From Candidatus Eutrophobius brisbanensis (GTDB lineage Bacteria; Pseudomonadota; Gammaproteobacteria; Eutrophobiales; Eutrophobiaceae), in NCBI GenBank assembly GCA_038131795.1, contig JAYPQE010000003.1:1446048-1510047 (forward strand): a stretch of DNA of 64,000 nt, given 5' to 3'. The notes beneath the pieces were generated by a model that was not told the DNA's origin, searched no databases, and saw nothing but the letters and a program-made list of their open reading frames with translations. Positions 2,948 to 38,275 of this stretch are shown in pieces (position 1 is the first letter of the stretch; each line of letters begins with the position of its first letter). Position numbers and translations under genes: made by a program.

Positions 2948-3802
2948 ATGAAATTAATCAGATTTGGTGATAAAGGCGCAGAAAAACCCGGCGTCATTGT
3001 TAATGGCGAGCGCAAGGACTGCTCTGGACATTTCGAAGACTGGAACCAGAAATTCTTCATGGACGACGGGCTTGAAAGGCTCTCTCAACTTATCGATGCT
3101 GAAGGTGACAATCTACCTACTGTGCCCGATACCAGCCGTTGGGGATCCTGCGTGGCCCGACCTAATATGATCATTTGTGTGGGGCTTAACTATTCAGACC
3201 ATGCCATTGAATCCGGCATGGATCTACCCAGAGAACCCGTCATATTTATGAAGGCGAACAATACCATTGCCGGCCCATATGATGACATTACCATTCCAAA
3301 AAACAGTGTAAAGACTGACTGGGAAGTGGAACTGGCCATTGTCATAGGCAAGGACAGTCTGTACCTGGAAAGTGAAGAAGAGGCAAAAGACTCTATCGCG
3401 GGTTATTGTGTGATGAATGATATTTCCGAGCGAGAATTCCAGATGGAGCGAGAAGGTCAATGGGTAAAAGGGAAATCCTGTCCGGACTTCAGTCCCGTCG
3501 GACCTTACCTGACTACTCAGGACGAAATTGATAACATTGAAAACCTGCAGTTGAAATTGTCAGTCAATGACAAGGTGATGCAAAACGGTAATACCAACAA
3601 AATGGTCTTCAAGCCCTATTTTCTGGTCTATTACATTTCCCAATTCATGAAACTGGAAGCCGGCGACATTATCTCAACAGGGACACCCCCTGGCGTTGGT
3701 TTTGGAATGAATCCTCCAATCTACCTTAAGCCTGGTGATTTGGTGGCGCTATCTATTGAGGGACTTGGGGAACAGAAACAGAGATTCATAGCGTATAATT
3801 AA
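2948..3802 (+). CDS. Fumarylacetoacetate hydrolase (FAH) family protein (2-keto-4-pentenoate hydratase/HpcE-like)
   Basis: Conserved FAH-fold blocks: ICVGLNYSDHA, EVELAIVIGK, MNDISEREFQ, GKSCPDFSPVGP. Confidence 0.85.
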   Translation: MKLIRFGDKGAEKPGVIVNGERKDCSGHFEDWNQKFFMDDGLERLSQLIDAEGDNLPTVPDTSRWGSCVARPNMIICVGLNYSDHAIESGMDLPREPVIFMKANNTIAGPYDDITIPKNSVKTDWEVELAIVIGKDSLYLESEEEAKDSIAGYCVMNDISEREFQMEREGQWVKGKSCPDFSPVGPYLTTQDEIDNIENLQLKLSVNDKVMQNGNTNKMVFKPYFLVYYISQFMKLEAGDIISTGTPPGVGFGMNPPIYLKPGDLVALSIEGLGEQKQRFIAYN

Positions 3803-3813
3803 TCTAAGCAATT

Positions 3814-3857
3814 GCCGCGCCCGGAAGGATTCGAACCTCCGACCCCCTAGTTCGTAG
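3814..3857 (-). repeat. 44-nt duplicate of the 3' half of a tRNA-Arg (att-like direct repeat; the left boundary of the islet)
   Basis: tgccgcgcccggaaggattcgaacctccgaccccctagttcgtag matches the minus-strand tRNA-Arg at 5884-5927, covering the T-arm and acceptor 3' strand down to the anticodon stem. The T-stem carries compensatory changes. The match diverges into AT-rich DNA immediately after the anticodon-stem position. Confidence 0.6.
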
Positions 3858-4005
3858 ATATATAGTTAATTTCCTAAATAACTAATACTAATAATAAGTT
3901 ATTAAATGATAATGTCCCAAAAATCCGCATCAACGTGTTCTGTAACTAATTGATATTTCTCTGGTGACATTAAACCAATGGGACAACACAGTAGGCTTAC
4001 TGACT

Positions 4006-4284
4006 TCACTCGGCCATGTTTTTTAATTCTTCTACCTCATCTTCAGATAACTCATATTCGCCGAATGCAAGAGAGGTCTTATTCCCATTTACAGCTGCAA
4101 TAAGCGCTGTTGCAATTTCGTTTTCTATTTGCGTTCCATTACCATCAGGAAAATAGAGTAGCCAATATACCCCTCCATGGAAACTATACTCGAGCTCCAA
4201 GTACGCTTCGTTACCTAACTCTATTTGAATGGTTTGAACCCTGGTCTCAATACTTTTGAGAAATTCATCAGTCTCTGTTGTCAT
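4006..4284 (-). CDS. Small acidic hypothetical protein of 92 aa (companion to the DGQHR protein)
   Basis: ORF with Glu/Asp-rich ends, co-directional with and 79 bp downstream of the DGQHR gene. The flanks are AT-rich. Confidence 0.4.
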   Translation of the reverse strand: MTTETDEFLKSIETRVQTIQIELGNEAYLELEYSFHGGVYWLLYFPDGNGTQIENEIATALIAAVNGNKTSLAFGEYELSEDEVEELKNMAE

Positions 4285-4362
4285 TTAAAATATTTCTCCT
4301 GATATTATTCAGAATAGTTGCCCTGCCAGCCTAACTGAATACAGGGCAACTTGACATGCACC

Positions 4363-5607
4363 CTATGCAGCTTCTAATGCTATTTCTTGGCCTGTTGGAT
4401 CTATATGCGAATAGATTAGCTTGTATAATGCCGTATACAATTGCTTCTGACCCGCAAAGCCTGCCTGTGACGCCATCCAGGGATTGTCTTCCCTCTTCTC
4501 CCAATCTATTAGTTCAAGGGGTTTCATTTTCTTATGCATAGCCTTGTCGATATTAATATCATAGTCTTGATGAGCCTCCAGTGCGCTTGTGACAATATCC
4601 CTACCCAACCTTGACAAAGAAGCAACGCCCACCAATTCTTTCAAGCGATATTTAATTTCCACTTCCTCTTCTTCACCGGTATCCGGGTCTACTTCAATTC
4701 TTGTTTTACCGTTCCATGCATCTGGAGAAAACTCAGAGATTAACTTCCAAAATGGTTTTGCAAAATCCTCTAGCGGATTCATACTCAACGATTCAATCCT
4801 TTCAAGAACCTCATTTGTAAACATATTTGAAACAGAACGCCTTAAACCTTCATAGGTAACTGCATAGTTAGGATTCCTGGCGCCTGTCATGTTTACGCTT
4901 TCAAACCATACGGAATTTTTGTCTCTTACAAGGCCAAATGCTATCTCTCGAATCTTCTGAGAATGAGATTTATCAGAAGTTTCAGTAATATCACCTTTCG
5001 TGACTTCAATTAACGCTTTCGGCAGCTTTCTCTGAGTGCTGTTAATGACATTAAATATTTCTGCTTCATCCTCAATGTTAAGTCTGAAAAAAAACTCAAT
5101 AGGCACAACGGGGTCAAAATCATCATAGTGTTGACGTGCCCACAATAAACCTCCCCTTCTATGTTGACCATCAATAACAGACATTACAGCCCCTCCCCAC
5201 TTCTTTTTAATAGCTTTGTATTCCTTATCCTGAAATAACCCTACGAATTCGCTAATGTCTGCATCAGACTTTAGCCTAACCGAGATTAGCAAAGGAGGAA
5301 TATTGGCTTTGTGGTCATAGTAGTATCTACCGATCTGAGGAAACCGCTTCTCATCAGGATTCCTTTGATAACCATGATTTCTTGGGGCAGGTGAATCAGG
5401 ATCATTAGAATCATATGTGCTAATAAAAAGCTCTTTTAAATCATAGGCTTCCAAGCAACTACTTGCTTGACGGAATGGTGATGTCCACGTCACCTTATTT
5501 GGTACTGGCAAAATATCTATATTATTCATGGGCTTATCTCCTAAATTATAATTAGTAACAATGTGCATGCTTGCGATAAGTTTGCTTAACGTTTTGTACA
5601 ATGTCAA
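4363..5607 (-). CDS. DGQHR-domain protein (DndB-like, ParB/Srx nuclease-like superfamily)
   Basis: Contains the literal motif VIDGQHRRGG. Its length (414 aa) is typical for DndB-like DGQHR proteins. It lies inside the tRNA-Arg-bounded AT-rich islet, and no dndACDE or ssp genes are nearby. Confidence 0.7.
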   Translation of the reverse strand: MTLYKTLSKLIASMHIVTNYNLGDKPMNNIDILPVPNKVTWTSPFRQASSCLEAYDLKELFISTYDSNDPDSPAPRNHGYQRNPDEKRFPQIGRYYYDHKANIPPLLISVRLKSDADISEFVGLFQDKEYKAIKKKWGGAVMSVIDGQHRRGGLLWARQHYDDFDPVVPIEFFFRLNIEDEAEIFNVINSTQRKLPKALIEVTKGDITETSDKSHSQKIREIAFGLVRDKNSVWFESVNMTGARNPNYAVTYEGLRRSVSNMFTNEVLERIESLSMNPLEDFAKPFWKLISEFSPDAWNGKTRIEVDPDTGEEEEVEIKYRLKELVGVASLSRLGRDIVTSALEAHQDYDINIDKAMHKKMKPLELIDWEKREDNPWMASQAGFAGQKQLYTALYKLIYSHIDPTGQEIALEAA

Positions 5608-5883
5608 TTATTAATTTATTTACATTGTTCCGATTATTGTATATTTTAAAATTACAGGTAATTTATTCAAATTTCTGTATATTTTTAGGGACTCATTACC
5701 TATGGATAACATATGTATACAGGCAAAGATTACGAAAATAACCTTAAAAAACTCCACACCTTAAGCCCGAGACAAAAGTCAGATCTCCATGAAATTGAGC
5801 AAAAAGCCATTGCAAGATTTCAGGGCATGTTCGATGAACTGGAGGCTGCCTTAGGCATGCTAAGGATTGGGCATCATGTAGGT

Positions 5884-5960
5884 TGGCGCGCCCGGAGAGA
5901 TTCGAACTCCCGACCCCCTAGTTCGTAGCCAGGTACTCTATCCAACTGAGCTACGGGCGC
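5884..5960 (-). tRNA. tRNA-Arg (anticodon ACG)
   Basis: Reverse complement: GCGCCCGTAGCTCAGTTGGATAGAGTACCTGGCTACGAACTAGGGGGTCGGGAGTTCGAATCTCTCCGGGCGCGCCA. It folds as a cloverleaf with a GGTTCGAATC T-loop and an encoded CCA. The anticodon loop reads CT-ACG-AA. Confidence 0.9.
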
Positions 5961-6060
5961 GTATCTGGTAATGCAGAGGGGGAATTCTAGCATTGTTATT
6001 CGATTGATTCACTACGTCATATTCCATTAATTATGTGCCTGCGGCACGATAAATTGATTA

Positions 6061-6129
6061 GATTCTGGCTTTCGCCAGAATGATGAGTTTATTTTTACAA
6101 TGAGTTTCCCGCTTTCGCGGGAATGACGG
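6061..6129. repeat. Two adjacent small palindromic repeat units (GATTCTGGCTTTCGCCAGAATGA and TTCCCGCTTTCGCGGGAATGAC)
   Basis: Inverted repeats ttctggc/gccagaa and tcccgc/gcgggaa with a gaaagc-type loop, flanked by the gaatgac motif. The same family recurs at 12742, 13186, 13267, 13378 and 15182. Confidence 0.6.
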
Positions 6130-6155
6130 TGGGGGCGTGGAATGACAAGAAACTG

Positions 6156-15538: not shown

Positions 15539-17137
15539 TTATTGAGGCTGAGCGGTGGCATCACCGTAATCGATGCTGATATCCCGACCAAAAAAGTTAG
15601 AATAGGCATCAGGAGTGTTCATTTCATCACGGGAAATTACTGTCGCGCCTAGCTTGACAAGTAATTCGGCTGTGTCTTCATGTACACCATATGCGCCCAC
15701 ATTATTGAAAGAGGGGGCAATACCCATAGACATACTCCACGCAGTCTCACCATTGGTATTTCTGGCATCCACCTCGGCACCGTGATCGACGAGATACTGA
15801 ACAACATTGGTGGTCCCGGTAAACGCGGCTTTGTGTAATGCAGTTTCACCATCTTCATTGACCTCGTTAACATCAACTCCCTGGGCCAGAATGGCCTTGA
15901 CAGCTTCCAGGGCCCGCGCCCTTTTTGCAGGGGAGGTATTGTCCTCCTGGTTCATACCGGTACAGGATGACCGGGCAGCCACCATTAATGGGGTATTGCC
16001 ATTTTTGGTGGTGATGGTCGCGTCTGCCTCGTATTTACTCAACATTTGTAGTAATTCTGCATCAGCGGAAACGGCGGCCAGGAAATAAGGTGTCGCACCC
16101 ACCATATTACTGACACTTTCACAGGAACTTCTAATGGCCGGTCCAATTAAATAACTCTTCTCAATCTGTGCATTGGGATCGGCACCGGCGTCCAACAGGG
16201 CCTTGACCAATTTAGGCTGGTTGCTTGGGCGAACCCGGTAGGAAGGATCATAGGTAATGCCATGCATGTACGACAGACCGTTCTGATGGGCATGATGCAG
16301 GGCCGTTACTCCATTCTCATCTTTGGATTCATGATCGGCACCGGACTTAAGAAGAAAAATTGCCAGATCTTCGTGACCGCTGGCAGTGGCGATTACCAGC
16401 GGGTTTCCGTATTCAGCTGTTGCTTCATTGATATTGGCACCGGCATCAAGTAACAAGCTTGCGGTTTCAATATCACCGGCACGGGCAGCATACATCATTG
16501 CAGTAAATCCACCGGGCGAGGGTTTCCATTCACATATACGACAGGTATTGGGAACTCGTTCCTCTGACGGTAAGGTTTTTGGAGAAATATCAGCACCGTG
16601 CTCCAATAACAACCGGGTGATTTCAGCGTAACCACCTGCAGCCGCCCACATTAGCGGTGTCTGCCCCATTTTGTTTTCAGCTACATTCGGATTGGCACCG
16701 GCTTTCAATAACGCCGCCACAGCATCGGTGGTCCCGGTACGAACACAATCCATAAGCAAGGTTTCACCTGACCATTTTTCGGCATTGGCATCGGCACCGG
16801 CATCCAGCAAAATCTTCACCACTTCACTGTTGCGGTTGGTGCAGGCCAGGGATGCAGGCGTTACACCATACACGTTCTCCGCATCCGGGTCTGCGCCTTT
16901 CTTTACCAGTGCTTTAATCGTATCGATATCATTCCGATGCACAGCGTAGTGTAATGCCGTTGTGCCATCTGCTTTCTTGCTATTGACATCAAGCTTTGAT
17001 TTCAGCATTGCCTGAATAATTTCCGAATCACCTTTCTTAACGGCATTGATAAATTCCATTCCGGAATCTGCAAGTACTGTTGTAGAAATGGCTGAAAACA
17101 GAAATACTGATAATGCATTTCGTAAAGACTGGTTCAT
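15539..17137 (-). CDS. Secreted ankyrin-repeat protein (third gene of module 1)
   Basis: Multiple 33-aa ANK repeats (e.g. DGTTALHYAVHRNDIDTIKALVKKGADPD). I placed the start at the ATG at 17137, which begins a signal peptide (MNQSLRNALSVFLFSAISTTVLA) and is preceded by the Shine-Dalgarno sequence GGGAGA. The ORF track extends to 17188. It is paralogous to 30033-31514 and 35450-36931. Confidence 0.8.
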   Translation of the reverse strand: MNQSLRNALSVFLFSAISTTVLADSGMEFINAVKKGDSEIIQAMLKSKLDVNSKKADGTTALHYAVHRNDIDTIKALVKKGADPDAENVYGVTPASLACTNRNSEVVKILLDAGADANAEKWSGETLLMDCVRTGTTDAVAALLKAGANPNVAENKMGQTPLMWAAAGGYAEITRLLLEHGADISPKTLPSEERVPNTCRICEWKPSPGGFTAMMYAARAGDIETASLLLDAGANINEATAEYGNPLVIATASGHEDLAIFLLKSGADHESKDENGVTALHHAHQNGLSYMHGITYDPSYRVRPSNQPKLVKALLDAGADPNAQIEKSYLIGPAIRSSCESVSNMVGATPYFLAAVSADAELLQMLSKYEADATITTKNGNTPLMVAARSSCTGMNQEDNTSPAKRARALEAVKAILAQGVDVNEVNEDGETALHKAAFTGTTNVVQYLVDHGAEVDARNTNGETAWSMSMGIAPSFNNVGAYGVHEDTAELLVKLGATVISRDEMNTPDAYSNFFGRDISIDYGDATAQPQ

Positions 17138-17168
17138 AAGGTCTCCCTGCTCTGTCTCTCGTAATTGT

Positions 17169-18506
17169 TTATGATACGGACAAGGCATTCAACGTGCCTG
17201 TACTGTCACCAAAGTTCTCGATTTCCAGACCGAGCTTATCTAACAAGGTCAGGTAAAGATTGCTGATTGGTGTGTCATCCGTATAGCGGATATGTTTACC
17301 ACCTTTCAATTGACCTGATCCGCCGCCAAAGAGAATACATGGCAGGTCTTGCAACAGATGATCATTACCATCACTCATTGAACATGCATACATGAGCATC
17401 ATATTATCCAGCAGGTTTCCTTCGATATCAGGGGTTGAGGCCAGTTTATCGAGGTAATGGACCATTAACTCTGAGTGATAAAGGTTAATCTTGTACAGTT
17501 TCTCCAGGCTGATCTCATTGCCCTGGTGGTGTGACAGAGAATGGTGAACGTCTGGCACGCCAATCTCAGGATAGGTGCGGTTACTCTGCTCCGGTCCCGT
17601 CATCAAGGTAATCACCCGGGTCATGTCCGTTTGATAGGCCATAACATTGAGATCAAACATCAATTTCAGGTGCTCGGCAAAATCTTCCGGGATTCCGGCC
17701 GGTGGTGATTCCAGTGACAGGCCCTGGCCCGTCTGTTGCTCGGCCAGTTCGATTCGATGTTCGATATCACGCATGCCGTCCATATATTCTGTCAGTCTCA
17801 GCTTGTCTTCTGGACTGACCTGTTTCATCAGGTCTTTCGCTGCCTCACTGACTGAATCCAGGATGCTCTGCTCTTTCTTGATCCGTTCCAGTCTCATGGC
17901 AGGATTGGTGCTGTCGCCAAAAAGGCGCTCGAAGACAGCACGTGGACGGTTTTCGATCGGCAGTGGCTGGGTGGGTGTCTTCCAGGAAAGGGTACTGATA
18001 AAGGCGCAGCTCCAGCCCTTCTCACATTGACCCACGGCATCGCTGCTGTGCAGGCCCAGTTCCAGTGACGCCAGCTGGGTCTTTTTACCCAGTTCCTGTG
18101 CAGCAATCTGGTCGATTGACGTTCCTACCACGCCCTCCCGTTTGGGATGAACACCCGTGAGGAATACCGCACCGGCACGTTCGTGGGGTGCCGATTCACC
18201 TTCACCAGGTTTGGCATAGCCCTCCATATTGGCCATACCACTTAGGACGGTCATTCTGTCCTTGTACGCCGCCAATGGCTGCATGATGGGTGTCAGTTCA
18301 TAGTTCGTACCTGTTTCCGTGGGTGTCCATTTAGTCATGTTCATGCCATTCGGTGCATAAACAATGGACAGCCTTCTTGGTATCTCTGCCCGATCTTTGA
18401 CAGATGCCAATGCAGGAAACATGGCATCCAGGACCGGCAAGGCGATGCTTGCACCCGCGCCTTTTAAAAATGTCCTTCTGGGGATAGATTTCTTAAATAT
18501 CAACAC
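17169..18506 (-). CDS. DUF1552 (HXXSHH) family protein with a Tat signal (second gene of module 1)
   Basis: Tat motif SIPRRTFLKGAGASIALPVLDA and the HXXSHH motif (DVHHSLSHH). GTG start, preceded by GAGGAGGG. It overlaps the upstream gene by 14 nt. Confidence 0.8.
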   Translation of the reverse strand: MLIFKKSIPRRTFLKGAGASIALPVLDAMFPALASVKDRAEIPRRLSIVYAPNGMNMTKWTPTETGTNYELTPIMQPLAAYKDRMTVLSGMANMEGYAKPGEGESAPHERAGAVFLTGVHPKREGVVGTSIDQIAAQELGKKTQLASLELGLHSSDAVGQCEKGWSCAFISTLSWKTPTQPLPIENRPRAVFERLFGDSTNPAMRLERIKKEQSILDSVSEAAKDLMKQVSPEDKLRLTEYMDGMRDIEHRIELAEQQTGQGLSLESPPAGIPEDFAEHLKLMFDLNVMAYQTDMTRVITLMTGPEQSNRTYPEIGVPDVHHSLSHHQGNEISLEKLYKINLYHSELMVHYLDKLASTPDIEGNLLDNMMLMYACSMSDGNDHLLQDLPCILFGGGSGQLKGGKHIRYTDDTPISNLYLTLLDKLGLEIENFGDSTGTLNALSVS

Positions 18507-20901
18507 GGTCCGGGACCCTCCTCGTTTGATAAGATGAACTGTTTACAATGGCAACAACCAGAGACGGCAGGCTGTGTTGCTCGGCCTTTGTCTCCTCAAT
18601 AATTGATCTGATTATAGGTGCATCGGTATGGCGAATTTCCCTGCCCAATGCATAGGTGAGCATTTTTTCAACCAGGGTAAAGGTAAAGTCATACTGCCTT
18701 TTTTCACTGAGCACCTGTTTGAGCTCTGATGGTCCTTCAAATGCTGTTCCATCTGGCAGGGCGCCTGTGGAATTAATAGGTGCAGCTGATTCACCATCAA
18801 CTGTTCGCCATTTACCAATGGCGTCAAAGTTTTCCAGGGCAAACCCCAGTGGATCCATGATCTTGTGGCAACTGGCACAAACTGGGTTTGCGCGGTGCAT
18901 TTCCATACGTTCGCGCATGGTCAATATCACACCTGCTTCGTTTTTGTCCTGTAGTCCTGGGACATCATTTGGCGGTGGCGGTGGCGGTACACCCAGTATG
19001 TTCTCCAGAATCCACTTGCCGCGTATAGTCGGTGCGGTGCGGTTGGCATAGGACGTCACCGTCAGGATGCTTCCCTGGCCCAGTAATCCACCACGGCCTT
19101 CACCATCCAATGCTACTTTACGAAAATGGTTTCCAAAGATACCGTCGATTCCATAGTGACCCGCAAGCCTTTCATTTAGAAAGGTGTAGTCAGCCGTCAA
19201 CATTTCCATTAACGGGCGTTCTTCACGCATGATATGGTCGATAAACAACTCAGTCTCTGTACGAAAAGCCTCTCTCAAGTTATCGTCAAAATACGGGAAG
19301 ATATCGATGTCCGGTGCAGCCACATTCAATTTCCCAAGTGTCAGCCATTGGGAGGCGAAGTTTTTCACCAGGGCAATCGAGCGCGGGTCATCAAGCATAC
19401 GCCTGACCTGCTTTTCCAGAACTTTCGGGTCGTTTAACTCACCTGACTCGGCCGCGGCCAGGAGTTCCTCATCAGGAATACTGCTCCAGATAAACAATGA
19501 CAGGCGGCTTGCCAATTCGAGATCGGGTAAATCATAAATCTCACCTTTAGCCACGTTCACAGGGACTTTTTCGGTAATAAATAAAAACTCAGGTCCTGCC
19601 AGCATTCTTTCGATGGCAACACCGATGCCCTGTTCAAATCCACCATTGGCAACTCCCTGGTCAAAAAATCCCATCAAGACGTCAACTTCTTTTACGGTGG
19701 GTGACCGACGGTAGGCCTTGCGTGCCAGGGACGAAAGGATGGCCCTGGCACAATCTGTGTCCTGGTTATTTTGCGGACTGCAGATAAGAATTTTTTCCCT
19801 GCTCGCTGTCTCCCCCGGACCGCGAACCTCATAGGGACCGCCTATGGCAATGGTCCGAACACCAGGATTCCCTCCCTTAAACTGGGTGTAGTCGTACATG
19901 GTATGGTCAGGAATTAGTGGCCCTTCCGGTAAAAATATATCTTGCAAGAAAGAAGCAGTAATCAACTGTTCACCGGCCTTTGCAGTAAACCGCACTTCAA
20001 GGTCCTGATCGGAATAGCGTTCATAGGCCTCCTGCCTGATATCCCCCTGTGCCGAGGTGGAATACAACTGGGATGATTTACCGAATTTCTGTCCGCCTAC
20101 GGTATACAGCTTCAAGCGTTCATCATTCATCCGAATATCAAGCTGGTGCGGCCGGTTGGTCATCCCGCGAATATAGTCGCGGTAGTTTCGCTGCAGCCTG
20201 ACCTGGATCACATACTCACCATCCATGGGAAAATGATGCCGAACTGCCATGCCTCCACGGGAACCAAACGGCATGTCTTCATTCATGCGCTCGTCCTGCT
20301 TTAAGGCCTGGGGTAATGTGTAATATTCAAATGCAGGTGTGATATCAGGATCACCCAGGGCCTGGTTACGGACCTTACGTGCAGCGGCAATATAGCGCTC
20401 AATCAATAACGGTGACAGGGTCAATACACCGCCGATGTTATCAAAATTGAACATGATGGCATCAGGTGGCAATAAGGTGTCACCATTGATGTCTACCGCA
20501 AACAGATCCCGGATGGCATTGACATACTCTGTCCTGTTCAGGCGCCGCATGGACGGCCTGCCAGGCTCAGGATTTTGTCTGGCGTGTCGGTTCAGGCCAT
20601 TTTCAAGGAAGCTGACAAAAGATTCATAGGTGGCTTCATCTGGTCTTGGCATGCCCGATGGCGGCATGGCCTTGGCACGCAATTTACGTAACACCTTCTC
20701 CCAGCTTTCACCATCAGCACCCAGATTGCTGGTATCAACTTGCTGTAGACTAAATGCCGCTGTCTTTAATGTATCGTTATGGCAACCAACACAATATTGG
20801 TTGACCGTATCTTGATAAAACCCGGCATCCTGTTGTGCCAGGACTGAGTTTGAAATAAGTAGCAGCGCGCTGCCCAAGAATGCGATAAGACCTTTTACCA
20901 T
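18493..20901 (-). CDS. Secreted DUF1587/DUF1592/DUF1595/DUF1588/DUF1585-type protein with two CxxCH motifs (first gene of module 1)
   Basis: Signal peptide, N-terminal CVGCHND and C-proximal CASCHKIMDPLGFALENFD motifs, and a G/P-rich linker (PPPPPP). It is 802 aa long. The family is planctomycete-type and typically pairs with DUF1552. Confidence 0.8.
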   Translation of the reverse strand: MVKGLIAFLGSALLLISNSVLAQQDAGFYQDTVNQYCVGCHNDTLKTAAFSLQQVDTSNLGADGESWEKVLRKLRAKAMPPSGMPRPDEATYESFVSFLENGLNRHARQNPEPGRPSMRRLNRTEYVNAIRDLFAVDINGDTLLPPDAIMFNFDNIGGVLTLSPLLIERYIAAARKVRNQALGDPDITPAFEYYTLPQALKQDERMNEDMPFGSRGGMAVRHHFPMDGEYVIQVRLQRNYRDYIRGMTNRPHQLDIRMNDERLKLYTVGGQKFGKSSQLYSTSAQGDIRQEAYERYSDQDLEVRFTAKAGEQLITASFLQDIFLPEGPLIPDHTMYDYTQFKGGNPGVRTIAIGGPYEVRGPGETASREKILICSPQNNQDTDCARAILSSLARKAYRRSPTVKEVDVLMGFFDQGVANGGFEQGIGVAIERMLAGPEFLFITEKVPVNVAKGEIYDLPDLELASRLSLFIWSSIPDEELLAAAESGELNDPKVLEKQVRRMLDDPRSIALVKNFASQWLTLGKLNVAAPDIDIFPYFDDNLREAFRTETELFIDHIMREERPLMEMLTADYTFLNERLAGHYGIDGIFGNHFRKVALDGEGRGGLLGQGSILTVTSYANRTAPTIRGKWILENILGVPPPPPPNDVPGLQDKNEAGVILTMRERMEMHRANPVCASCHKIMDPLGFALENFDAIGKWRTVDGESAAPINSTGALPDGTAFEGPSELKQVLSEKRQYDFTFTLVEKMLTYALGREIRHTDAPIIRSIIEETKAEQHSLPSLVVAIVNSSSYQTRRVPDRVDI

Positions 20902-30032: not shown

Positions 30033-31514
30033 TTACTGGCCTGGCGGCGGTGGGGCATTGGAATCCATCGCATCCCGGCTGGTGGTATTGGCACCAAGTT
30101 GTTCAAGGAGTTTGGCCGTACTTTCATGATAGCCGTAAAGACCTCGATACCTGAGCACAGGACTTATGCCGGACGCCATGCTCCAGGGGGTTTCCCCATA
30201 GTTATCTGTTACATTGATGTCAGCCCCCATCTCAGCAAGATATTTGACCACCATATCATTTCCGGTAAATGCCGCCATATGCATAGCAGTCTGGCCTTCT
30301 TCATTTTTAGCGTCAATATCAATCCCTATTTCAACAACAGCCTTCACGGCTTCAAAGGATTTCTGAATGTCCTTATCATTGGCCTGGTTGCCACCTTTAA
30401 AGGCACACGCCCCGGTACATGCGGCGCGGGCTGCCGCCATTAACGAGTTAATCCCGCCCTTTGCAGCAATATTCTGATCTGCTTCATACGATTTGAGCAT
30501 TTCCATCATCTGGATATCGGCAGAAATGGATGCAAGTAGAAAGGGGGTTGCCCCGACCATATCAAAAGGGCTACCGTCCGGCCCAAGGCGTTTACTTTTT
30601 TTGATCTGAATATTCGGATCAGCGCCTGCCTCAAGAAGAGCATGTACTAACCTGTGTAAATTATCAGGGATTTGTCTGTATACGGGGTCATAACGGACAC
30701 CATTCAAGGCGGCCATACCACTCGCCATGGAATGATGCAGCGCAGAAATACCATTTTCATCCGTCGCATCCGGGTCTGCTCCCACACTCAACAGATATAG
30801 CCCCAGGTCTTCATGACCTCCTGCAGCGGTGATAACCAGTGCAGTCCCATACTCTGGCGTAGATTCATTGGGATCGGCACCTGCATCTATGATTGCCCGG
30901 GCTGAAACAACATCACCGGAACGGGCGGCAAACAGCAGTGGCGTAAACCCGGAACTCGATCTGGCGTGGATATCTGCACCATGTTCCACCAGCAGCTGAC
31001 TGATTTCACCATGACCTTCTGCCGCTGCCCACATAAGGGCCGTTTGGTCCTTCTTGGTTTCCTTTGCATTTGGATCAGCGCCTTTTGCAAGTAGTGCAGC
31101 AACTGCCTCCGTTGCCCCAGTCTTGGAACAATTCATCAATACAGTTTCACTACTCCACAATGCAGCATTAGGGTTGGCACCAGCAACAAGCAGTTTTTTT
31201 GCCAACTCATTATTACGATTAGTGCAGGCAAGATATAAAGGTGTTACTCCATAATCATTTGTCGCATTAACATCAGCATCAGCAAACAGCAACTTTTCAG
31301 AAATCTCCATGTCATTTCGATGAACCGCCCAATGTAATGCGGTGGTCCCATCTGCCTCTGCTTGATTGATGCCTGCAGATTGACCAATCAATTCGCCCGC
31401 TGCTGCAGAGTCTCTCCTTTTAACTGCATCGATCAATGGATGGTCGCCAACAGCATATGCGGGCGCCGTTATAATACAAATTAAAATATATCGGTATAAC
31501 CAGTTCATCATCAA
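30033..31514 (-). CDS. Secreted ankyrin-repeat protein (third gene of module 2)
   Basis: Signal peptide plus ANK repeats. It shares the ACTGxC...GGNQ block with its paralogs. Confidence 0.8.
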   Translation of the reverse strand: MMMNWLYRYILICIITAPAYAVGDHPLIDAVKRRDSAAAGELIGQSAGINQAEADGTTALHWAVHRNDMEISEKLLFADADVNATNDYGVTPLYLACTNRNNELAKKLLVAGANPNAALWSSETVLMNCSKTGATEAVAALLAKGADPNAKETKKDQTALMWAAAEGHGEISQLLVEHGADIHARSSSGFTPLLFAARSGDVVSARAIIDAGADPNESTPEYGTALVITAAGGHEDLGLYLLSVGADPDATDENGISALHHSMASGMAALNGVRYDPVYRQIPDNLHRLVHALLEAGADPNIQIKKSKRLGPDGSPFDMVGATPFLLASISADIQMMEMLKSYEADQNIAAKGGINSLMAAARAACTGACAFKGGNQANDKDIQKSFEAVKAVVEIGIDIDAKNEEGQTAMHMAAFTGNDMVVKYLAEMGADINVTDNYGETPWSMASGISPVLRYRGLYGYHESTAKLLEQLGANTTSRDAMDSNAPPPPGQ

Positions 31515-31522
31515 AATTCCTT

Positions 31523-32860
31523 TTATACGTTTAACAGATTGACCAATCCGATACTGTCACCAAACTTTCCTTCCTGCACACCCAGTTTGTCCATAATCGT
31601 CAGGTATAGATTTGAAATGGGTGTCTCATCCGGATACCTGATGTGCTGGTTACCTTTCAATTGGCCTGAACCGCCACCCACCAGCATGATGGGCAGGTTC
31701 TGCAGCAGATGCTCATTACCATCACTCATGGCGCTGCCGTACATAACGATCATATTGTCCAGCAGGTTTCCTTCTATATCCGGTGTTGCCCTTAACTTAT
31801 CCAGGTAGTATGAGAATAACTGTGTGTGATAGACATCAATCTTGGCAATCTTCTCCAGAAATACAGGGTCATTCCGGTGGTGTGACAGGGAATGATGTAC
31901 ATCGGGAATACCGATTTCTTCATAGGTTCTGTTGCTCTGTTCGGGACCGGTCATAAAGGTAATCATTCGGGTCATATCCGTCTGGAAGGCCAATACCTGC
32001 AGGTCGTACATCAGTTTCAGGTGGTCGGCAAACTCTGATGGCACACCAGAAGGTCTTTCAAAGGAAGGGATTTCTCTGCCGGATTGTTGCTCGGCCAGCT
32101 GGATACGCCTCTCCACATCACGCATACCCTCCATATATTCAGTAAGACGGGACTTGTCCTCCACACCAACCTTTTTCATTAAACGGTTGGTCGCATCGGT
32201 CACCGAATCAAGGATACTCTGCTCTTTTTGAATACGTGCAAGCCTGATTGCAGGGTCAGTGCTACTATTGTCCCCGAATAATCTCTCAAACACGGCCCGT
32301 GGTCGGTACTCTATGGGTAATGGGGTGGTTGGAGACCGCCAGCTCAGTGTCATACGATAGGCGCAGCTCCAGCCTTTTTCACAACTCCCTACCACGTCTG
32401 TATTGTGTAGCCCCAGTTCCAGAGAGGCCAGCTGGGTTTTCTGCCCAAGTTCCCGCGCAATGATCTGATCTACAGACGTACCAACATGACCTTCTCTTAA
32501 TGGATGGACCCCGGTCAGGAAGACACCACCGGCCCTTTCGTGAGGTGCTGATTCACCTTCACCGGGTAACGCGTCCCCCTCACTATTATTCATCCCACCA
32601 AGCACCAGCATCTGGTCCTGAAAGGCGGCAAGTGGTTGCATGGTCCGGGGTAATTTGAAACCTGCCCCGGTCTGTTCCGGCGTCCAGTACTGCATGTTCA
32701 TTCCATTGGGAGAATAGACAATGGAAAAACGCCTGGGTATCTCTGCCTGTTTTCCAGCCGCAAGTGCTGGAAACATGGCATCCATCACTGGCAATGCAAT
32801 GCATGCGCCTGCACCACGAAGGAATGTACGGCGAGGTATGGATCGTTTAAATATCATCAT
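31523..32860 (-). CDS. DUF1552 (HXXSHH) family protein with a Tat signal (second gene of module 2)
   Basis: HHSLSHH motif and a Tat motif. I placed the start at ATGATG (32860), which is preceded by AGAGGAGGG. The ORF track extends to 32902. Confidence 0.8.
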   Translation of the reverse strand: MMIFKRSIPRRTFLRGAGACIALPVMDAMFPALAAGKQAEIPRRFSIVYSPNGMNMQYWTPEQTGAGFKLPRTMQPLAAFQDQMLVLGGMNNSEGDALPGEGESAPHERAGGVFLTGVHPLREGHVGTSVDQIIARELGQKTQLASLELGLHNTDVVGSCEKGWSCAYRMTLSWRSPTTPLPIEYRPRAVFERLFGDNSSTDPAIRLARIQKEQSILDSVTDATNRLMKKVGVEDKSRLTEYMEGMRDVERRIQLAEQQSGREIPSFERPSGVPSEFADHLKLMYDLQVLAFQTDMTRMITFMTGPEQSNRTYEEIGIPDVHHSLSHHRNDPVFLEKIAKIDVYHTQLFSYYLDKLRATPDIEGNLLDNMIVMYGSAMSDGNEHLLQNLPIMLVGGGSGQLKGNQHIRYPDETPISNLYLTIMDKLGVQEGKFGDSIGLVNLLNV

Positions 32861-35255
32861 GGCCGGGGGCCCTCCTCTTCTTAAACGGTGTACTCTCAAC
32901 AATCTCCAGGATCATCGAGGTAAGTTTGTAATCATTTTTTGCAGATTGCTTCAATATGGAACGCATAATAGGGGCGTCACGGTAATCCACTCCCCTGCCC
33001 AGTGCATAGGTCATCAACTTTTCAATGGAAGTCAGAACAAAATCCTCATAACGATTTTCTACCAGGACTTCCTTTAATTGAGCCATCCCTTCAAATGGCG
33101 TGCCGTCAGGTAATGCGCCAGTTGCGTCGATGGCAGAATCTGAAGCAGCGTCCACTAATCGCCATTTACCTATGGCATCATAGTTTTCCAGTGCAAACCC
33201 AAGGGGGTCCATGATCTTATGACAGCTTGCACATACCGGGTTGGCACGGTGCTGTTCCATCTGCTGACGCATATTCAGGACCTTGCCCTGTTCATTGGTG
33301 TCTTTGAGCGCAGGGATATTCGCCGGCGGTGGCGGTGGTGGTGCTCCAAGAATATTTTCCAGTACCCATTTCCCCCGTATGGTGGGGGCTGTCCTGTTGG
33401 GATAGGAAGTCAATGTCAGGATGCTGCCCTGGCCAAGCAGGCCTCCACGTGATGCGTCGGGCAGGTTCACCTTTCTGAAGTGGCTGCCATAAACACCGGG
33501 TATTCCATAGTGTCTCGCCAGTCGCTCATTCACGAAGGTATAGTCGGCATTGAGCAATTCCAGTACAGAACGATCATTCCTGAAGATATAATCGAAGAAA
33601 AGTTCAGTCTCTTTCTGAAAGGCCTGCCTAAGATTATCTTCGAAATAAGGGAACAGATCCGTGTTAGGTGCAGCTGCGTTTAAATTACCCAACTGCAGCC
33701 ATTGCGAGGCAAACTTCGATATGATGACTTCGGATCTGGGGTCTGACAGCATTCGCCTGACCTGTCCTTCCAGAACTTCCCGGTCTGATAACCTTCCGGC
33801 TTCGGCCAGGGCCAACAACTCATCATCGGGAGAAGACCGCCACAGGAAAAAGGATAATTCACTGGCGAGTTCCAGGTCTGAAATACTGAATATCTCGCCT
33901 GGCTTCACATCATCAGGACGATCAACAATGACAAACAGGAATTCAGGCCCTGCCAGCATACGTTCCATGGCAAGACCAATCCCTTCTTCAAAACTGGTGG
34001 ATTTCCCCTGGTGATAAAAGCCCATCAGGTCTTCCACTTCCTGGTTTGTTGGCGGCCTGCGATATGCCCTGTGAGCAAGGCTGGAAATAATTTCTTTTGC
34101 ACACTCTGCATCATTATTGTTTTTTGGCTTACATATTAGAATCTTGTCACGGCTTTCGGTCTGTCCAATACCTTTTGCATTATAGGGACCGCCTACGGCA
34201 ACGGTATGCACAGCGGGGACCCCGCCTTTATATTGTGCGTAGTCGTATAAGGTATGTCGCGGGTATTCAGGTTCTGCCGGGATAGTGGATTCTTTCAGGA
34301 CAGTGACCGTCAATTTATGCGTGCCTGCCTTTGAAGTAAAGCGTGCCTCCAGCGCATCATCCGCTGTCCTCTCATAATGCTCCTGTTCCACATCACCCGA
34401 CGAGCCTGATGAAAAGATGCCGGCTGAGCGACCATAAGTTTCCCCACCAATCGTAATCAGTTTTATCCTTTCACCATCGAGCCTAATATCAAACTGGTAA
34501 GGCTCTGTTAGCCCCCGTATGTATTCTCTTGAATTGCGTTGTAACTTGACCTGAACCACATATTCCCCGTCCATAGGAAAGTTATGGTTGACCGAGGTTC
34601 CACCCATGGAACCAAACGGCATGTCATCTCCCATGCGGTCATCCTGCATCAGGTAACCTGAAACTGTATAGATATCAAATACCGGCTGCATTTCAGGCTC
34701 ACCCAGGGCAAGTTTCCTGACCTTTCTGGCTGCCGAGATATACTGTTCTGTCAATAACGGTGAAAGTGTTAATACTTCACCGATATTATCAAAACCGTAC
34801 ATGGTGTCATCTGAAGGTAATATCGTGTCATTGGTAATCTCTATCGCAAACAGATCTCGCACGATATTGATATATTCAGTCTTGTTTAATCTTCGTATCG
34901 TTGGACCACCCGGCCTGGGGTCTGTCATGGCAAGTGAATCCAGCGAGGTTGTAATATAACTGGCCATAGACTGGTAGGTAGAGTCATCCGGCCTCGGCAT
35001 CCCCGATGGCGGCATCGACCTGGCCTTTAATTTACGTAGCACTTTTTCCCAGATTTCTGCATCTTCACCAACATTACTGGCATCCACGCCTTGTAGTGAA
35101 AGCCCTGCAGTGCGCAAGGCGTCATTATGGCAACCGACACAAAATTGATTAACTGTGGCCTGGTGCTCATCACCTGCAGATGATTGCTGAGCGCTTGCTC
35201 CCATGCTGACCAACAAAGAAAAAGCGATCAGACAAATCCTGAAAGATAAGGACAT
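32847..35255 (-). CDS. Secreted DUF1587/1592/1595/1588/1585-type di-CxxCH protein (first gene of module 2)
   Basis: CVGCHND and CASCHKIMDPLGFALENYD motifs. It is 802 aa long with a signal peptide. Confidence 0.8.
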   Translation of the reverse strand: MSLSFRICLIAFSLLVSMGASAQQSSAGDEHQATVNQFCVGCHNDALRTAGLSLQGVDASNVGEDAEIWEKVLRKLKARSMPPSGMPRPDDSTYQSMASYITTSLDSLAMTDPRPGGPTIRRLNKTEYINIVRDLFAIEITNDTILPSDDTMYGFDNIGEVLTLSPLLTEQYISAARKVRKLALGEPEMQPVFDIYTVSGYLMQDDRMGDDMPFGSMGGTSVNHNFPMDGEYVVQVKLQRNSREYIRGLTEPYQFDIRLDGERIKLITIGGETYGRSAGIFSSGSSGDVEQEHYERTADDALEARFTSKAGTHKLTVTVLKESTIPAEPEYPRHTLYDYAQYKGGVPAVHTVAVGGPYNAKGIGQTESRDKILICKPKNNNDAECAKEIISSLAHRAYRRPPTNQEVEDLMGFYHQGKSTSFEEGIGLAMERMLAGPEFLFVIVDRPDDVKPGEIFSISDLELASELSFFLWRSSPDDELLALAEAGRLSDREVLEGQVRRMLSDPRSEVIISKFASQWLQLGNLNAAAPNTDLFPYFEDNLRQAFQKETELFFDYIFRNDRSVLELLNADYTFVNERLARHYGIPGVYGSHFRKVNLPDASRGGLLGQGSILTLTSYPNRTAPTIRGKWVLENILGAPPPPPPANIPALKDTNEQGKVLNMRQQMEQHRANPVCASCHKIMDPLGFALENYDAIGKWRLVDAASDSAIDATGALPDGTPFEGMAQLKEVLVENRYEDFVLTSIEKLMTYALGRGVDYRDAPIMRSILKQSAKNDYKLTSMILEIVESTPFKKRRAPGHDDI

Positions 35256-35449: not shown

Positions 35450-36931
35450 TTATTGGCCTGGAGGGGGCGGCGAACGATCGTCCATCTGGTCACGGGTGAC
35501 TACTTTTGCCCCCAGCTTACGCAATAATGCTGCTGTGCTTTCGTGGTTGCCGTACAGGCCCTGGTAACGGATCACCGGGCTGATTCCGGATGCCATACTC
35601 CAGGGGGTTTCTCCATAATTATCAGATACGTTTACCTCGGCGCCCTGATCATATAAATACTGGACAATTTCATCGGCACCAATAAATGCCGCCATGTGCA
35701 TTGCCGTTTGACCTTTTTCGGTCCTGGCATTGACGTCCACTCCCATCTCAACCGCTGTTTTCACTGCCTCCAGGGCTAGGCGACTTCTCTCACTATCTGA
35801 CTGGTTGCCCCCCTGAAAGGTACAGGACCCGGTACAGGCGGCCTGGGCTGCAGCGATTAACGGAGTAATACCTCCCTTTGCCACCAGACTGGGATTCGCT
35901 TCATATTCAGCCAACAGATTCATAAGTTCAACATCTGATGACAGGGCGGCAAGCATTAAAGGCGTGGCATAGGTCATCTCAAAGGCACTGCCGTCCGGGC
36001 CTAGCCTATGGCTTTTTTGAATCTGGGCATTAGGATCGGCACCGGCTTCAAGCAGGCTTTTAGTCAACCCCTGCATGTTCTTGGGCCTTACCCTGTACAC
36101 TGAATCGTAACGGACGCCATTGACAGTGGACATGCCATTACGAATGGAGTTATGCAATGCAGTGACGCCGTATTCATCGCCCGAATCGGGATTGGCCCCT
36201 TGTTGTAGTAAATATATAGACAATGCTTCATGACCACTGGCACTGGCAATCACCAGGGTGTTTCCCTGCTCTGGTGTACTTTCATTGGGGTTGGCGCCGG
36301 CTTCTATGAGATGCTTAGCCGTTTCAACATCACCCGATCGCGCGGCAAATAACAATGGTGTGAATCCATTATTCGATACTGCCTTTATATTAGCCCCATT
36401 GTCCAACAGTTGATGGACGACATCGGCGTGCCCCCCTGCTGCTGCCCACATGAGTACAGTCTGGCCTTTCTCTGTTTCACTTGCGTTAACATCTGCGCCG
36501 GCATTAATCATTGCGATGACTGCATCTGTTGCCCCTCTTTTCGCACAGTTCATCAAGGGGGTCTCACCAGACCAGAGGGCAACATTGGGGTTTGCCTTTG
36601 CCTTCAATAATATCCCTACCATTGCTGAACTCTTATTGGTACAGGCCAGATACAATGGTGTAATACCATAGTCATTGGCGATATTGACATCGGCCTTTTG
36701 TCGTACGAGCAGTTTAGCCAACTCCAGGTTGTCCCAGTGAGCCGCCCAGTGCAGCGCAGTGGTCCCATCATTATGGGCGGTATTTACATCCAGGCCATCG
36801 GCTTTAAGCAACACAGTGAACTTATCATTATCATTTTGTTTTGCAGCCTCAACCAATGGGGGAAGAGATGAGGCGATACTCACATATGTAATGCTGGAGA
36901 TGAGTAAAAACAGTAAAAATTTAATGTTCAT
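35450..36931 (-). CDS. Secreted ankyrin-repeat protein (third gene of module 3)
   Basis: Signal peptide plus ANK repeats. It is a paralog of 30033-31514. Confidence 0.8.
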   Translation of the reverse strand: MNIKFLLFLLISSITYVSIASSLPPLVEAAKQNDNDKFTVLLKADGLDVNTAHNDGTTALHWAAHWDNLELAKLLVRQKADVNIANDYGITPLYLACTNKSSAMVGILLKAKANPNVALWSGETPLMNCAKRGATDAVIAMINAGADVNASETEKGQTVLMWAAAGGHADVVHQLLDNGANIKAVSNNGFTPLLFAARSGDVETAKHLIEAGANPNESTPEQGNTLVIASASGHEALSIYLLQQGANPDSGDEYGVTALHNSIRNGMSTVNGVRYDSVYRVRPKNMQGLTKSLLEAGADPNAQIQKSHRLGPDGSAFEMTYATPLMLAALSSDVELMNLLAEYEANPSLVAKGGITPLIAAAQAACTGSCTFQGGNQSDSERSRLALEAVKTAVEMGVDVNARTEKGQTAMHMAAFIGADEIVQYLYDQGAEVNVSDNYGETPWSMASGISPVIRYQGLYGNHESTAALLRKLGAKVVTRDQMDDRSPPPPGQ

Positions 36932-36934
36932 AGG

Positions 36935-38275
36935 CTAGGCCGTCTCAATATCCAGGCGACCCGTGCTGTCTCCAAATGACTCCAGGTGCACACCCAGTTT
37001 GTCTAACAGGGTAAGGTACAGATTGGCAACCGGTGTCTTCTCCTGGTACCTGATGTGGATGCCACCATTTAGCTGACCTGCACCGCCACCGATAACAACC
37101 AGTGGCAGGTTTTGCATGAGGTGGTCGTTGCCATCACTAATGCCACTGCCATACAGGACAATGATGTTATCCAGCAATGTACCTTCCATATCCGGGGTGT
37201 CAGCCAGGCGGTCCAGATAATATCGCATTAACTCCATGTGATAATTATCTATTTTCTTAAGCTTGCCGAGTTTTTCAGGGCTACCCTGGTGATGGGAAAG
37301 GGAATGATGCACGTCAGGGATTCCAATCTCCTTGTAGGTGCGGTTACTCTGTTCCGGCCCCATCATAAAGGTAATGATACGGGTCATATCCGTCTGGTAC
37401 GCCAGTACCTGTAAATCAAACATTAATTTAAGGTGATCGGCAAAATTTGCCGGGACACCTGAAGGGCGTTCCACGGTTGGAATCTCACGGTCTGATTGCT
37501 GCTCAGCCATCTGGATCCTGCGTTCCACATCCCGCATTCCATCAAGGTATTCTGTAATCCTGACCCGGTCCTGGGGACCTACTTTCTTCATCATCCTTGA
37601 GGCGGCATCAGTTACCGCATCCAAAAGGCTCTTGTCTTTCTCTAACCTGGCCATCCGTACTTTGGGATCGGTGCTGTTATTATCACCAAATAACCTTTCA
37701 AATACTGCCCGGGGACGGTATTCAATGGGTAATGGTGTGGTGGGATTACGCCATGACAGGGTGTTCATAAAGGCGCAACTCCAACCTTTTTCACAGTGAC
37801 CGGTGACATCTGTTGAATGTAAACCCAGTTCCAGTGAGGCCAGCTGGGTATGTTGTCCAAGTTCCCTGGCAACGATTTGATCAACTGATATACCCGTCTC
37901 TCCGTAACGCAATGGATGCACACCGGTCAAAAATACACCACCTGCTCGTTCATGGGGTGCAGTTTCACCTTCCCCAGGTAGCGCATCACCTTCATTATTG
38001 TCCAACCCGGTGAGGACATGCAACTTGTCTTTATATTTTGCTATCGGTTCAAGAGAAGGACTTAATTCAAAATTTCTACCCGTAGCCTCAGGTGTCCACT
38101 GGGACATGTTCATACCATTAGGGGTATAGATGATAGAGAACCGGTTTACCTGGTCATGTTTATCTTTCGCAGCAGCCAGGGCGGGCACCATGGCATCGAG
38201 AAACGGTAATGCAATACTTGCACCGGTACCTTTGAGAAATGTTCTACGATCAATAGCTTTTTTAAATATCATCAT
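36935..38275 (-). CDS. DUF1552 (HXXSHH) family protein with a Tat signal (second gene of module 3)
   Basis: HHSLSHH motif. The start is at ATGATG (38275), preceded by GAGGAGGG. The ORF track extends to 38314. Confidence 0.8.
   Translation of the reverse strand: MMIFKKAIDRRTFLKGTGASIALPFLDAMVPALAAAKDKHDQVNRFSIIYTPNGMNMSQWTPEATGRNFELSPSLEPIAKYKDKLHVLTGLDNNEGDALPGEGETAPHERAGGVFLTGVHPLRYGETGISVDQIVARELGQHTQLASLELGLHSTDVTGHCEKGWSCAFMNTLSWRNPTTPLPIEYRPRAVFERLFGDNNSTDPKVRMARLEKDKSLLDAVTDAASRMMKKVGPQDRVRITEYLDGMRDVERRIQMAEQQSDREIPTVERPSGVPANFADHLKLMFDLQVLAYQTDMTRIITFMMGPEQSNRTYKEIGIPDVHHSLSHHQGSPEKLGKLKKIDNYHMELMRYYLDRLADTPDMEGTLLDNIIVLYGSGISDGNDHLMQNLPLVVIGGGAGQLNGGIHIRYQEKTPVANLYLTLLDKLGVHLESFGDSTGRLDIETA

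Follow-up and report, generated by a model that had tools for sequence, protein, structure and literature searches.

An integrase-less 2-kb islet at tRNA-Arg with a solitary DGQHR (DndB-like) protein in Candidatus Eutrophobius brisbanensis

Organization of the tRNA-Arg islet

We analyzed a stretch of 64,000 nucleotides (hereafter the window) from the gammaproteobacterium Candidatus Eutrophobius brisbanensis (assembly GCA_038131795.1, contig JAYPQE010000003.1, positions 1,446,048 to 1,510,047), in which an islet of about 2 kb abuts a tRNA-Arg(ACG) gene and carries one gene for a DGQHR (DndB-like) protein and one for a small acidic protein (Table 1). A previous inspection of the letters without database searches (the sequence-only reading) had placed an intact tRNA-Arg on the minus strand at 5884-5960, on which ARAGORN and Rfam agree, and a partial duplicate of it at 3814-3857, which our repeat search recovered and extended by two bases. 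The resulting direct repeat (3812-3857 versus 5883-5928) spans 46 nt at 89% identity and is a copy of the 3' half of the tRNA. An identical 19-nt core, CCGACCCCCTAGTTCGTAG, is contained in both repeats and occurs exactly twice in the 64 kb, versus no occurrence in 100 shuffles; in the intact gene this crossover core corresponds to tRNA bases 5910-5928. Of the five mismatches, four amount to two compensated base pairs of the T-stem, which reads GGGAG/CTCTC in the intact tRNA and GGAGG/CCTTC in the copy; this agrees with the earlier observation that variants in the copy are stem-compatible. The remaining mismatch falls within the CCA end of the distal copy.

The DNA between the repeats is AT-rich, as had been noted, with a GC content of 38.1% versus 46.4% for the whole window. 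It holds just the two genes described before, which are co-directional on the minus strand and 78 nt apart. The 91-nt inter-gene spacer has a minimum free energy of -30.3 kcal/mol (z = -3.45), and its hairpin is not a canonical terminator because no U-tract follows it. A promoter-like site (TTGAAT-16-TAAAAT, 5670 to 5643) precedes the DGQHR gene, such sites being no more numerous than in shuffled sequences, and the short direct and inverted repeats around the gene are AT-rich and chance-like. An additional open reading frame (ORF) of 71 aa on the plus strand is doubtful: it had no match in Pfam, NCBIfam, PADLOC, PHROG or plasmids and no similarity to integrases. It sits where related elements carry their integrase. 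The Rfam scan of the islet returned tRNAs only.

Table 1. Features of the tRNA-Arg islet and its borders (positions are those of the window)
Feature	Position	Strand	Evidence
tRNA-Arg(ACG), intact	5884-5960	minus	ARAGORN and Rfam (tRNA, 62.3 bits)
Distal att site, the displaced native 3' half of tRNA-Arg	3812-3857	minus	repeat match and alignment with L005
Inserted islet, 2,026 bp	3858-5883	none	38.1% GC; absent from L005
DGQHR/DndB-superfamily gene, 388 aa (P0001), AGGAG ribosome-binding site	4363-5529	minus	
Gene for 92-aa acidic protein, five-member family	4006-4284	minus	HMMER relatives
Stem-loop between both genes, 10-bp perfect stem	4316-4351	minus	inverted repeat I7; folding energy
AT-rich divergent intergenic region with promoter-like site	5530-5712	none	consensus match only
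Doubtful 71-aa ORF, pI 9.6, running into the tRNA	5713-5928	plus	no homolog
Segment missing from metagenome contig L034, 959 bp	4814-5772	none	100% identity on either side

An empty site in a related genome

The site is found without the islet in a related metagenome-assembled genome (MAG; GCA_038139235.1, locus L005), which matches the window at 97.7% identity along the 1.9 kb between an aldo/keto-reductase gene and the tRNA. There, the 3' end of a FAH-family gene comes immediately after the tRNA-Arg; this is the flank that the window has past the distal repeat, and from position 3811 downward the window continues exactly as L005 does after its tRNA. In a three-way alignment, the 3' half of the L005 tRNA equals the distal copy of the window (3814-3857) save for one base of the CCA end, and the T-stem of the window's intact tRNA differs from the native one by the two compensated pairs. 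Because L005 is empty and its tRNA half matches the distal copy, the islet is a recent insertion whose tRNA-proximal half-site was borne by the element, and tRNA bases 5884-5909 (the T-arm and the 3' strand of the acceptor) are derived from the element. As judged from sequence comparison, the islet is a recent site-specific insertion at tRNA-Arg, proven by the empty site, and the insertion is polymorphic within a species-level group.

The sequence-only reading had interpreted the repeats as attL and attR left by site-specific integration into a tRNA and had looked to relatives with an empty tRNA-Arg site for comparison. L005 provides such a site and bears out this interpretation; it does not carry the same two genes without an att duplication, the arrangement expected of an ancestral locus. 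The comparison shows that the element recombined with the host tRNA-Arg(ACG) inside the 19-nt core of its 3' half, whereby the element's own 26-nt 3' end rebuilt the tRNA and the native 3' half was pushed 2 kb off. Such an outcome is classic for integrase-mediated recombination between a host tRNA and an attP that mimics the 3' half of the tRNA.

As a separate observation on L005 (2236-9882), the similarity to the window's FAH-family gene ends after about 300 bp, and the contig goes on into MFS-transporter and Rieske-dioxygenase genes that are missing from the window. This break after the FAH-family gene stems from a rearrangement, unless the MAG contig is chimeric.

Elements sharing the attachment site and the missing integrase

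No integrase had been seen in the islet, and profile and similarity searches concur. The Pfam scan of the islet identified no PF00589, resolvase or transfer gene; tblastn with four tyrosine integrases against 5530-5960, 3800-4010 and the whole window returned no integrase remnant; and no integrase was present among the best 25 of the 78 families found in the Pfam scan of the window ORFs.

The element-type 3' end of tRNA-Arg (32 nt, exact) is present in 39 IMG/VR viral contigs (L097-L135), most of which carry a partial tRNA copy of 45-49 nt, the same extent as in the window. In all three of the contigs examined (L118, L130 and L134), att is flanked at a distance of 15-45 nt by a PF00589 tyrosine integrase, and in two of the 39 the att sequence occurs at two places, which is consistent with prophage ends. 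Since 39 viral contigs share att and each of the three checked has an adjacent integrase, this exact tRNA-Arg site is evidently used by a large family of integrase-bearing elements, and the islet has no integrase exactly where these att-sharing elements carry theirs. Comparison of the islet with the 39 contigs (blastn, tblastx) revealed no similarity beyond the tRNA segment.

Cis-mobilizable elements (CIMEs) are defined by the retention of attL and attR and the loss of integration and transfer genes (PMC5704250). Both half-sites of the islet are intact, with the 19-nt identical core, and it has no recombinase or transfer gene. Because attL and attR are retained and recombination genes are absent, the islet is probably a CIME-like, integrase-less remnant (2.07 kb) of an integrative element of the tyrosine-integrase type, carrying unrelated cargo genes. 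In common with CIMEs, it has kept both att sites without integration or transfer genes, its site being the 3' end of a tRNA; unlike them, it has no accretion partner or helper integrase visible in the window, and its descent by deletion is a step that we infer. The integrase was either lost by deletion, or the islet has always been mobilized in trans. The suggestion of the sequence-only reading that the islet is a decayed remnant of a larger island is thus favored over its two-gene proposal, as att-sharing viral contigs carry the integrase that is missing here and a metagenome contig shows the islet eroding further; no integrase remnant was detected.

Family, fold and conservation of the DGQHR protein

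The DGQHR protein had been described as having 414 aa. Its gene and the literal DGQHRRGG motif are as described, whereas the length of 414 aa depends on an upstream TTG; the ATG at 5529, which is preceded by a ribosome-binding site (AGGAG), yields 388 aa, exactly the database protein P0001, and 388 aa is likely the true length. An exact look-up of P0001 among assemblies gave no record. The proposed identity as a DndB-like DGQHR protein of the ParB/Srx fold is upheld by profile matches above cutoff and by fold comparison. TIGR03187 (DGQHR) scored 84.8 bits versus a cutoff of 58.85, and Pfam DndB (PF14072) scored 49.3 bits versus 29.1 over residues 73-387, thereby covering both domains. The AlphaFold model, made from 26 homologs (pLDDT, the predicted local distance difference test, 88), predicts an N-terminal ParB/Srx fold and a C-terminal helical domain of the DndB type. 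Its best structural matches are PadC and KorB, and its matches among viral structures are DndB-like, ParB and GmrSD-N proteins, which indicates the same fold; a PDB sequence search with the DGQHR profile found no relative. The protein is therefore a true member of the DGQHR/DndB superfamily with a ParB/Srx fold. It lies far below the cutoffs of both equivalogs, with 37.9 bits versus 450 for the Dnd-linked TIGR04172 and 21 bits versus 300 for DpdB (NF041060), and thus is neither DndB proper nor DpdB; the sole PADLOC match was a weak one to DpdB (6.3e-06).

The alignment of the 26 homologs spans Gammaproteobacteria, Chloroflexia, Actinomycetota, Gemmatimonadota, Planctomycetota and phages, with a mean column identity of 47% and 78 invariant columns. 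Among the invariant residues are Q55-R56, D120-G-Q-H-R124 and F159...N163; the QR pair, DGQHR and FxxxN are listed motifs of the superfamily (PMC4619093). Motifs specific to the clade are HGYQR, QRKLPKAL, EGxRR, YRxKxLVGVA and NPW..SQAGFAGQ. The protein of the window looks functional, since it keeps every invariant clade motif. Some homologs additionally carry an N-terminal sigma-70 region-4 helix-turn-helix (HTH), which points to sequence-specific DNA binding.

Among described proteins, DndB shares with the islet protein the superfamily, the PF14072 match over both domains, the QR/DGQHR/FxxxN motifs, the ParB/Srx N-domain and the helical C-domain. It differs in being Dnd-linked, with dndCDE and dndA as neighbors that were found beside neither the islet gene nor its homologs, whereas the islet protein is solitary, islet-borne and far below the TIGR04172 cutoff. 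DpdB, the DGQHR ATPase partner of DpdA in 7-deazaguanine DNA modification, has the DGQHR domain in common with the islet protein, but the latter falls short of NF041060 and its gene has no adjacent DpdA/tgt-like or dpd genes. Orphan proteins of the ParB-CTPase fold and stand-alone ParB/Srx proteins of the Osa/KorB type resemble it as stand-alone ParB/Srx folds on mobile elements and phages; they belong to the PF02195 ParBc family rather than to DGQHR, and the islet protein is without a parS, ParA or KorA partner. Finally, the DUF262 (DGQQR) NTPases of GmrSD, SspE, BrxU and Menshen NsnA, which occur in defense islands, have a ParB/Srx fold, a phosphate-binding motif of the DGxQR type and a helical domain (PMC4619093, PMC12065111). 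Unlike them, the islet protein is neither fused to a DUF1524/HNH nuclease or ABC ATPase nor encoded next to one, and it matches DGQHR models, not DUF262 models.

Distribution and erosion of the DGQHR clade

A pattern-limited scan of 185,579 species genomes identified 20 loci of the DGQHR clade; IMG/VR holds 2 loci, and no homolog was found in 72,556 plasmids. The gene is also present in four Arthrobacter jumbo phages (~190-194 kb), with two copies per phage record, which would suit a position in the terminal repeat. It lies near the genome end and is transcribed against its neighbors (e.g. Racecar, L035 1985-3634). Homologs of this phage group have a long basic N-terminal extension and are annotated as 'hypothetical protein' or 'ParB-like nuclease domain'. 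Because about 12 soil-metagenome loci (L046, L054, L060, L067-L073, L076-L078) are syntenic with Racecar, the DGQHR gene is a conserved gene of the Arthrobacter jumbo-phage group.

In bacteria, the gene is repeatedly found in small islands whose borders are repeats of tRNA or tmRNA 3' ends. These include a 6.0-kb island at tRNA-Gly (L012; 42-nt repeat), where an Eco57I-like methyltransferase adjoins; a 10.5-kb island at a tmRNA (L017; 27-nt repeat), with an adjacent integrase and a HerA-like ATPase; a 3.0-kb island at tRNA-Phe (L027; 45-nt repeat), in which the DGQHR gene is frameshifted; and a 5.8-kb island at tRNA-Phe (L041/L042) with a weaker repeat of 23 nt, an HNH protein inside and a SacI-type restriction endonuclease (REase) just outside. 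The tRNA-proximal ORFs of the islands in L012, L027 and L042 had no Pfam or PHROG match. Further neighbors of DGQHR genes are AriA/Old/GajA-type ATPases, HmaA, and proteins resembling a PRTase III-A and a REase. Taken together, the clade is a rare, tightly conserved, single-gene cargo of small tRNA/tmRNA-bounded islands, often beside restriction or defense genes.

A metagenomic contig from the Logan assemblies (L034, SRR26337544_158597) joins window position 5773 directly to 4813, with 100% identity on both sides and a 2-nt microhomology. This 959-bp deletion takes away the promoter together with residues 1-239, which contain the complete ParB/Srx domain, and leaves the gene for the 92-aa protein in place. 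A second contig of the same run (L008) ends, as L034 does, inside the distal att copy. The deletion in L034 and the frameshift in L027 suggest that the DGQHR gene is dispensable and decays after transfer.

Two observations concern the homologs in Chloroflexia. At L012 (12549-13929), a third, degenerate copy of the tRNA-Gly 3' end (86% over 37 nt) lies 1.3 kb past the distal repeat, which suggests tandem accretion of two elements. Moreover, three Chloroflexia MAGs (L011:7520-9190, L012:7500-9175 and L022:7440-9130) share a DGQHR block of ~1.6 kb at 75-80% nucleotide identity within unrelated flanks, and their homologs have an N-terminal sigma70_r4 HTH. The block consists of a TTGACA promoter, CCGGACCCCTG(CAAGC) close to where transcription likely starts, a conserved leader of ~100 nt, the gene, a terminator hairpin, and GTCCGTTnCCGGACCCCTG again exactly at the end of homology. 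Rfam had no match to the conserved leaders beyond tRNAs, and no counterpart of CCGGACCCCTG was found among the repeats around the DGQHR gene of the window. The CCGGACCCCTG motif could serve as an operator or a parS-like site, or it could mark the ends of a single-gene cassette.

Proposed role of the DGQHR protein

On the reading that we favor, two unrelated cargo genes ride a CIME-like islet, with a solitary DGQHR protein as the main cargo. This protein alone may act as a nucleoside triphosphate (NTP)-gated factor for DNA binding or DNA processing, in the manner of DndB and KorB in regulation or of Osa as an ATPase and DNase. The DGxxR loop of the ParB/Srx fold binds NTP phosphates, and Osa-type ParB/Srx proteins have both ATPase and DNase activity. 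Previous studies describe DndB as an ATP-modulated DNA-binding autoregulator (PMC4507180, PMC10853773) that is possibly also an effector, ParB-superfamily proteins including DndB having been proposed as effectors (PMC10853773). A survey finds that mobile elements commonly carry orphan proteins of the ParB fold and describes a DndB-like one that binds both ATP and GTP (bioRxiv 10.1101/2025.10.10.680097). DUF262 relatives serve as NTPase sensors in SspE, GmrSD and Menshen (PMC12065111).

With respect to the function of this protein, a role of any kind in conflicts between mobile elements and hosts (defense, exclusion or counter-defense) has, in our estimation, an even chance of being correct, and a regulatory or maintenance function can be put forward only tentatively. 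A broader proposal, in which the solitary clade would be a partner-less ParB/Srx NTPase conflict system that senses or attacks foreign DNA or nucleotides, both in defense islands and in jumbo phages, seems doubtful to us; in the Arthrobacter jumbo phages, a DGQHR conflict protein could serve exclusion or counter-defense. That the protein helps to move its own minimal cassette is hinted at by the integrase-less tRNA islets (the window and L027) and the repeat-bounded 1.6-kb Chloroflexia block, and we give this idea very little credence.

Several points weigh against the interpretation of the islet as a remnant with unrelated cargo and a DNA-acting protein. The NTP-dependent, DNA-acting role of the DGQHR protein is one that we infer, and the association of its clade with defense islands is qualitative. 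There is no trace of a deleted integrase, and decay from a larger element would look the same as a minimal element mobilized in trans. Seen from the 92-aa protein, the co-occurrence test comprises two informative loci only (L029 and L033); the two genes are co-directional, 78 nt apart and separated by a hairpin without a U-tract, so that co-transcription and a lineage-specific functional pairing are possible. Finally, the deletion allele of L034 is represented by one short de Bruijn-graph contig.

Alternative explanations

The alternative that survives best is that the DGQHR protein is by itself an anti-phage or anti-plasmid effector or sensor, i.e. an Osa-like ATPase/DNase or a nucleotide depleter, and that the islet is a minimal defense cargo element with an irrelevant passenger gene. 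Such a single-gene bacterial defense would be a subset of the conflict role considered above, and we regard it as somewhat unlikely. In its favor, bacterial homologs often lie in tRNA islands beside restriction or defense genes, and the gene's solitary state, sporadic occurrence among phyla and high conservation are typical of conflict genes; the proposed ParB-superfamily effectors (PMC10853773) and the sensing by related DUF262 domains in SspE, GmrSD and Menshen (PMC12065111) offer precedents. However, PADLOC returned nothing save the weak DpdB match, no effector domain is attached, and copies show decay both in this population and in L027. Moreover, the gene is a conserved syntenic gene of jumbo phages of the lytic type, to which a phage-side function would fit equally well.

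The sequence-only reading had proposed an undescribed two-gene unit for defense or toxin immunity, with the 92-aa protein as the partner of the DGQHR protein. The small gene is present as claimed and its product is indeed acidic (pI 4.05). Such a module could be expected from the adjacency of the two genes, co-directional and 78 nt apart within a horizontally acquired islet, and from the possibility of read-through at a hairpin without a U-tract. The 92-aa protein matches no Pfam, NCBIfam or PADLOC model, and a word-seeded homolog search returned only the protein itself. When 1.84 billion representatives were scanned exhaustively with HMMER, four relatives emerged (P0129, P0130, P0138 and P0132), of which P0129 is 60% identical and P0132 has the domain fused after an XRE-type HTH, as in many antitoxins. 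A profile search with the family added no further members, so that it comprises five among 5.8 billion clusters. The structural model of the 92-aa protein (pLDDT 84) had no significant fold match (Z <=5.7), rendering the fold search uninformative.

The co-occurrence survey, by which a conserved pairing would be recognized, found homologs of the two genes nowhere together. Our set of 83 DGQHR-homolog loci, which totals 728 kb and draws on genomes, metagenomes and viral contigs, contained no relative of the 92-aa protein (tblastn, E <=1). Relatives of the 92-aa protein at the informative loci L029 and L033 have other neighbors and no DGQHR gene, the remaining contigs being shorter than 1.7 kb. 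All-versus-all clustering of neighboring ORFs identified no family common to the bacterial DGQHR loci, and the nearest DGQHR homologs, which are 57% identical and come from Thermomonas and a gammaproteobacterial MAG, stand alone between housekeeping genes and a Fic gene. Because 0 of 83 DGQHR loci have a 92-aa relative and L029 and L033 have no DGQHR gene, the two genes evidently do not form a conserved module, the DGQHR protein is solitary, and the 92-aa protein is treated here as independent cargo. A two-gene module is therefore improbable.

Alternatively, the protein may be an orphan regulator or accessory ATPase of the DndB/DpdB type that serves a Dnd, Ssp or Dpd system elsewhere in the genome. 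Membership in the DGQHR/DndB superfamily and the weak DpdB profile match agree with this, as does the fact that DndB acts in trans as a regulator (PMC4507180). The scores for TIGR04172 and DpdB argue otherwise, as does the arrival of the gene on a 2-kb islet that a 97.7%-identical relative lacks. The absence of dndACDE, sspABCD and other known partner genes, reported by the sequence-only reading, extends from the islet to the 64-kb window: there was no Dnd, Dpd or Ssp protein among its 49 ORFs and no DpdA/tgt-like gene. No such protein recurs among 145 neighbors of homologs in 20 genomes, where one DpdF-like helicase was found near a single DGQHR homolog only. We consider a dependence on such a system highly unlikely.

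That the locus is ancestral, its repeat arising by chance or local duplication rather than as an insertion scar, is almost certainly wrong: the missing integrase is all that speaks for it, and it is refuted by the three-way alignment with the precise empty site of L005, by compensated T-stem differences that imply half-sites of different origins, by the GC drop within the islet, and by the many integrase-bearing viral contigs that use the same att.

Other features of the window

Elsewhere in the window, three paralogous three-gene modules are encoded on the minus strand (15539-20901, 30033-35255 and 35450-40658), each with an ankyrin-repeat protein, a DUF1552 (HXXSHH) protein and a PSD/PSCyt (DUF1585/1587/1588/1592/1595) protein of ~800 aa; PADLOC labels these modules PDC-M72A and Ankyrin. 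Palindromic repeat units of the GGAATGAC type (e.g. tcccgctttcgcgggaatgacgg) occupy 6040-6140, just upstream of tRNA-Arg, and similar tandem 29-nt units, CGGGAATGACGG, adjoin tRNA genes in a gammaproteobacterial MAG (L009:16593-16692). Units of both types may be repetitive extragenic palindromic (REP)-like elements. A second tRNA gene of the window, tRNA-Ser(GCT), lies on the minus strand at 51975-52065.

Biological significance

The novelty of the locus is modest, in that the islet is of a known, CIME-like kind and the protein is an uncharacterized, partner-less variant of DGQHR/DndB. It is nonetheless a very clean natural case of integration at a tRNA site, which displays the empty site together with the native half-site that was displaced and the compensated T-stem that the element brought. 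Moreover, it shows that att-bounded islets can shrink to about 2 kb without a recombinase and stay recognizable. To our knowledge, DGQHR proteins have so far been studied only within the Dnd and Dpd modification systems. The present analysis defines a rare, sharply conserved and partner-less DGQHR (DndB-like) clade that moves between tRNA islets resembling defense islands and jumbo phages. If the protein is active alone, whether through NTP-gated DNA binding, nuclease activity or nucleotide depletion, it would be a minimal addition to the conflict repertoire of the ParB/Srx fold and would offer a tractable handle on the biochemistry of the DGQHR module.

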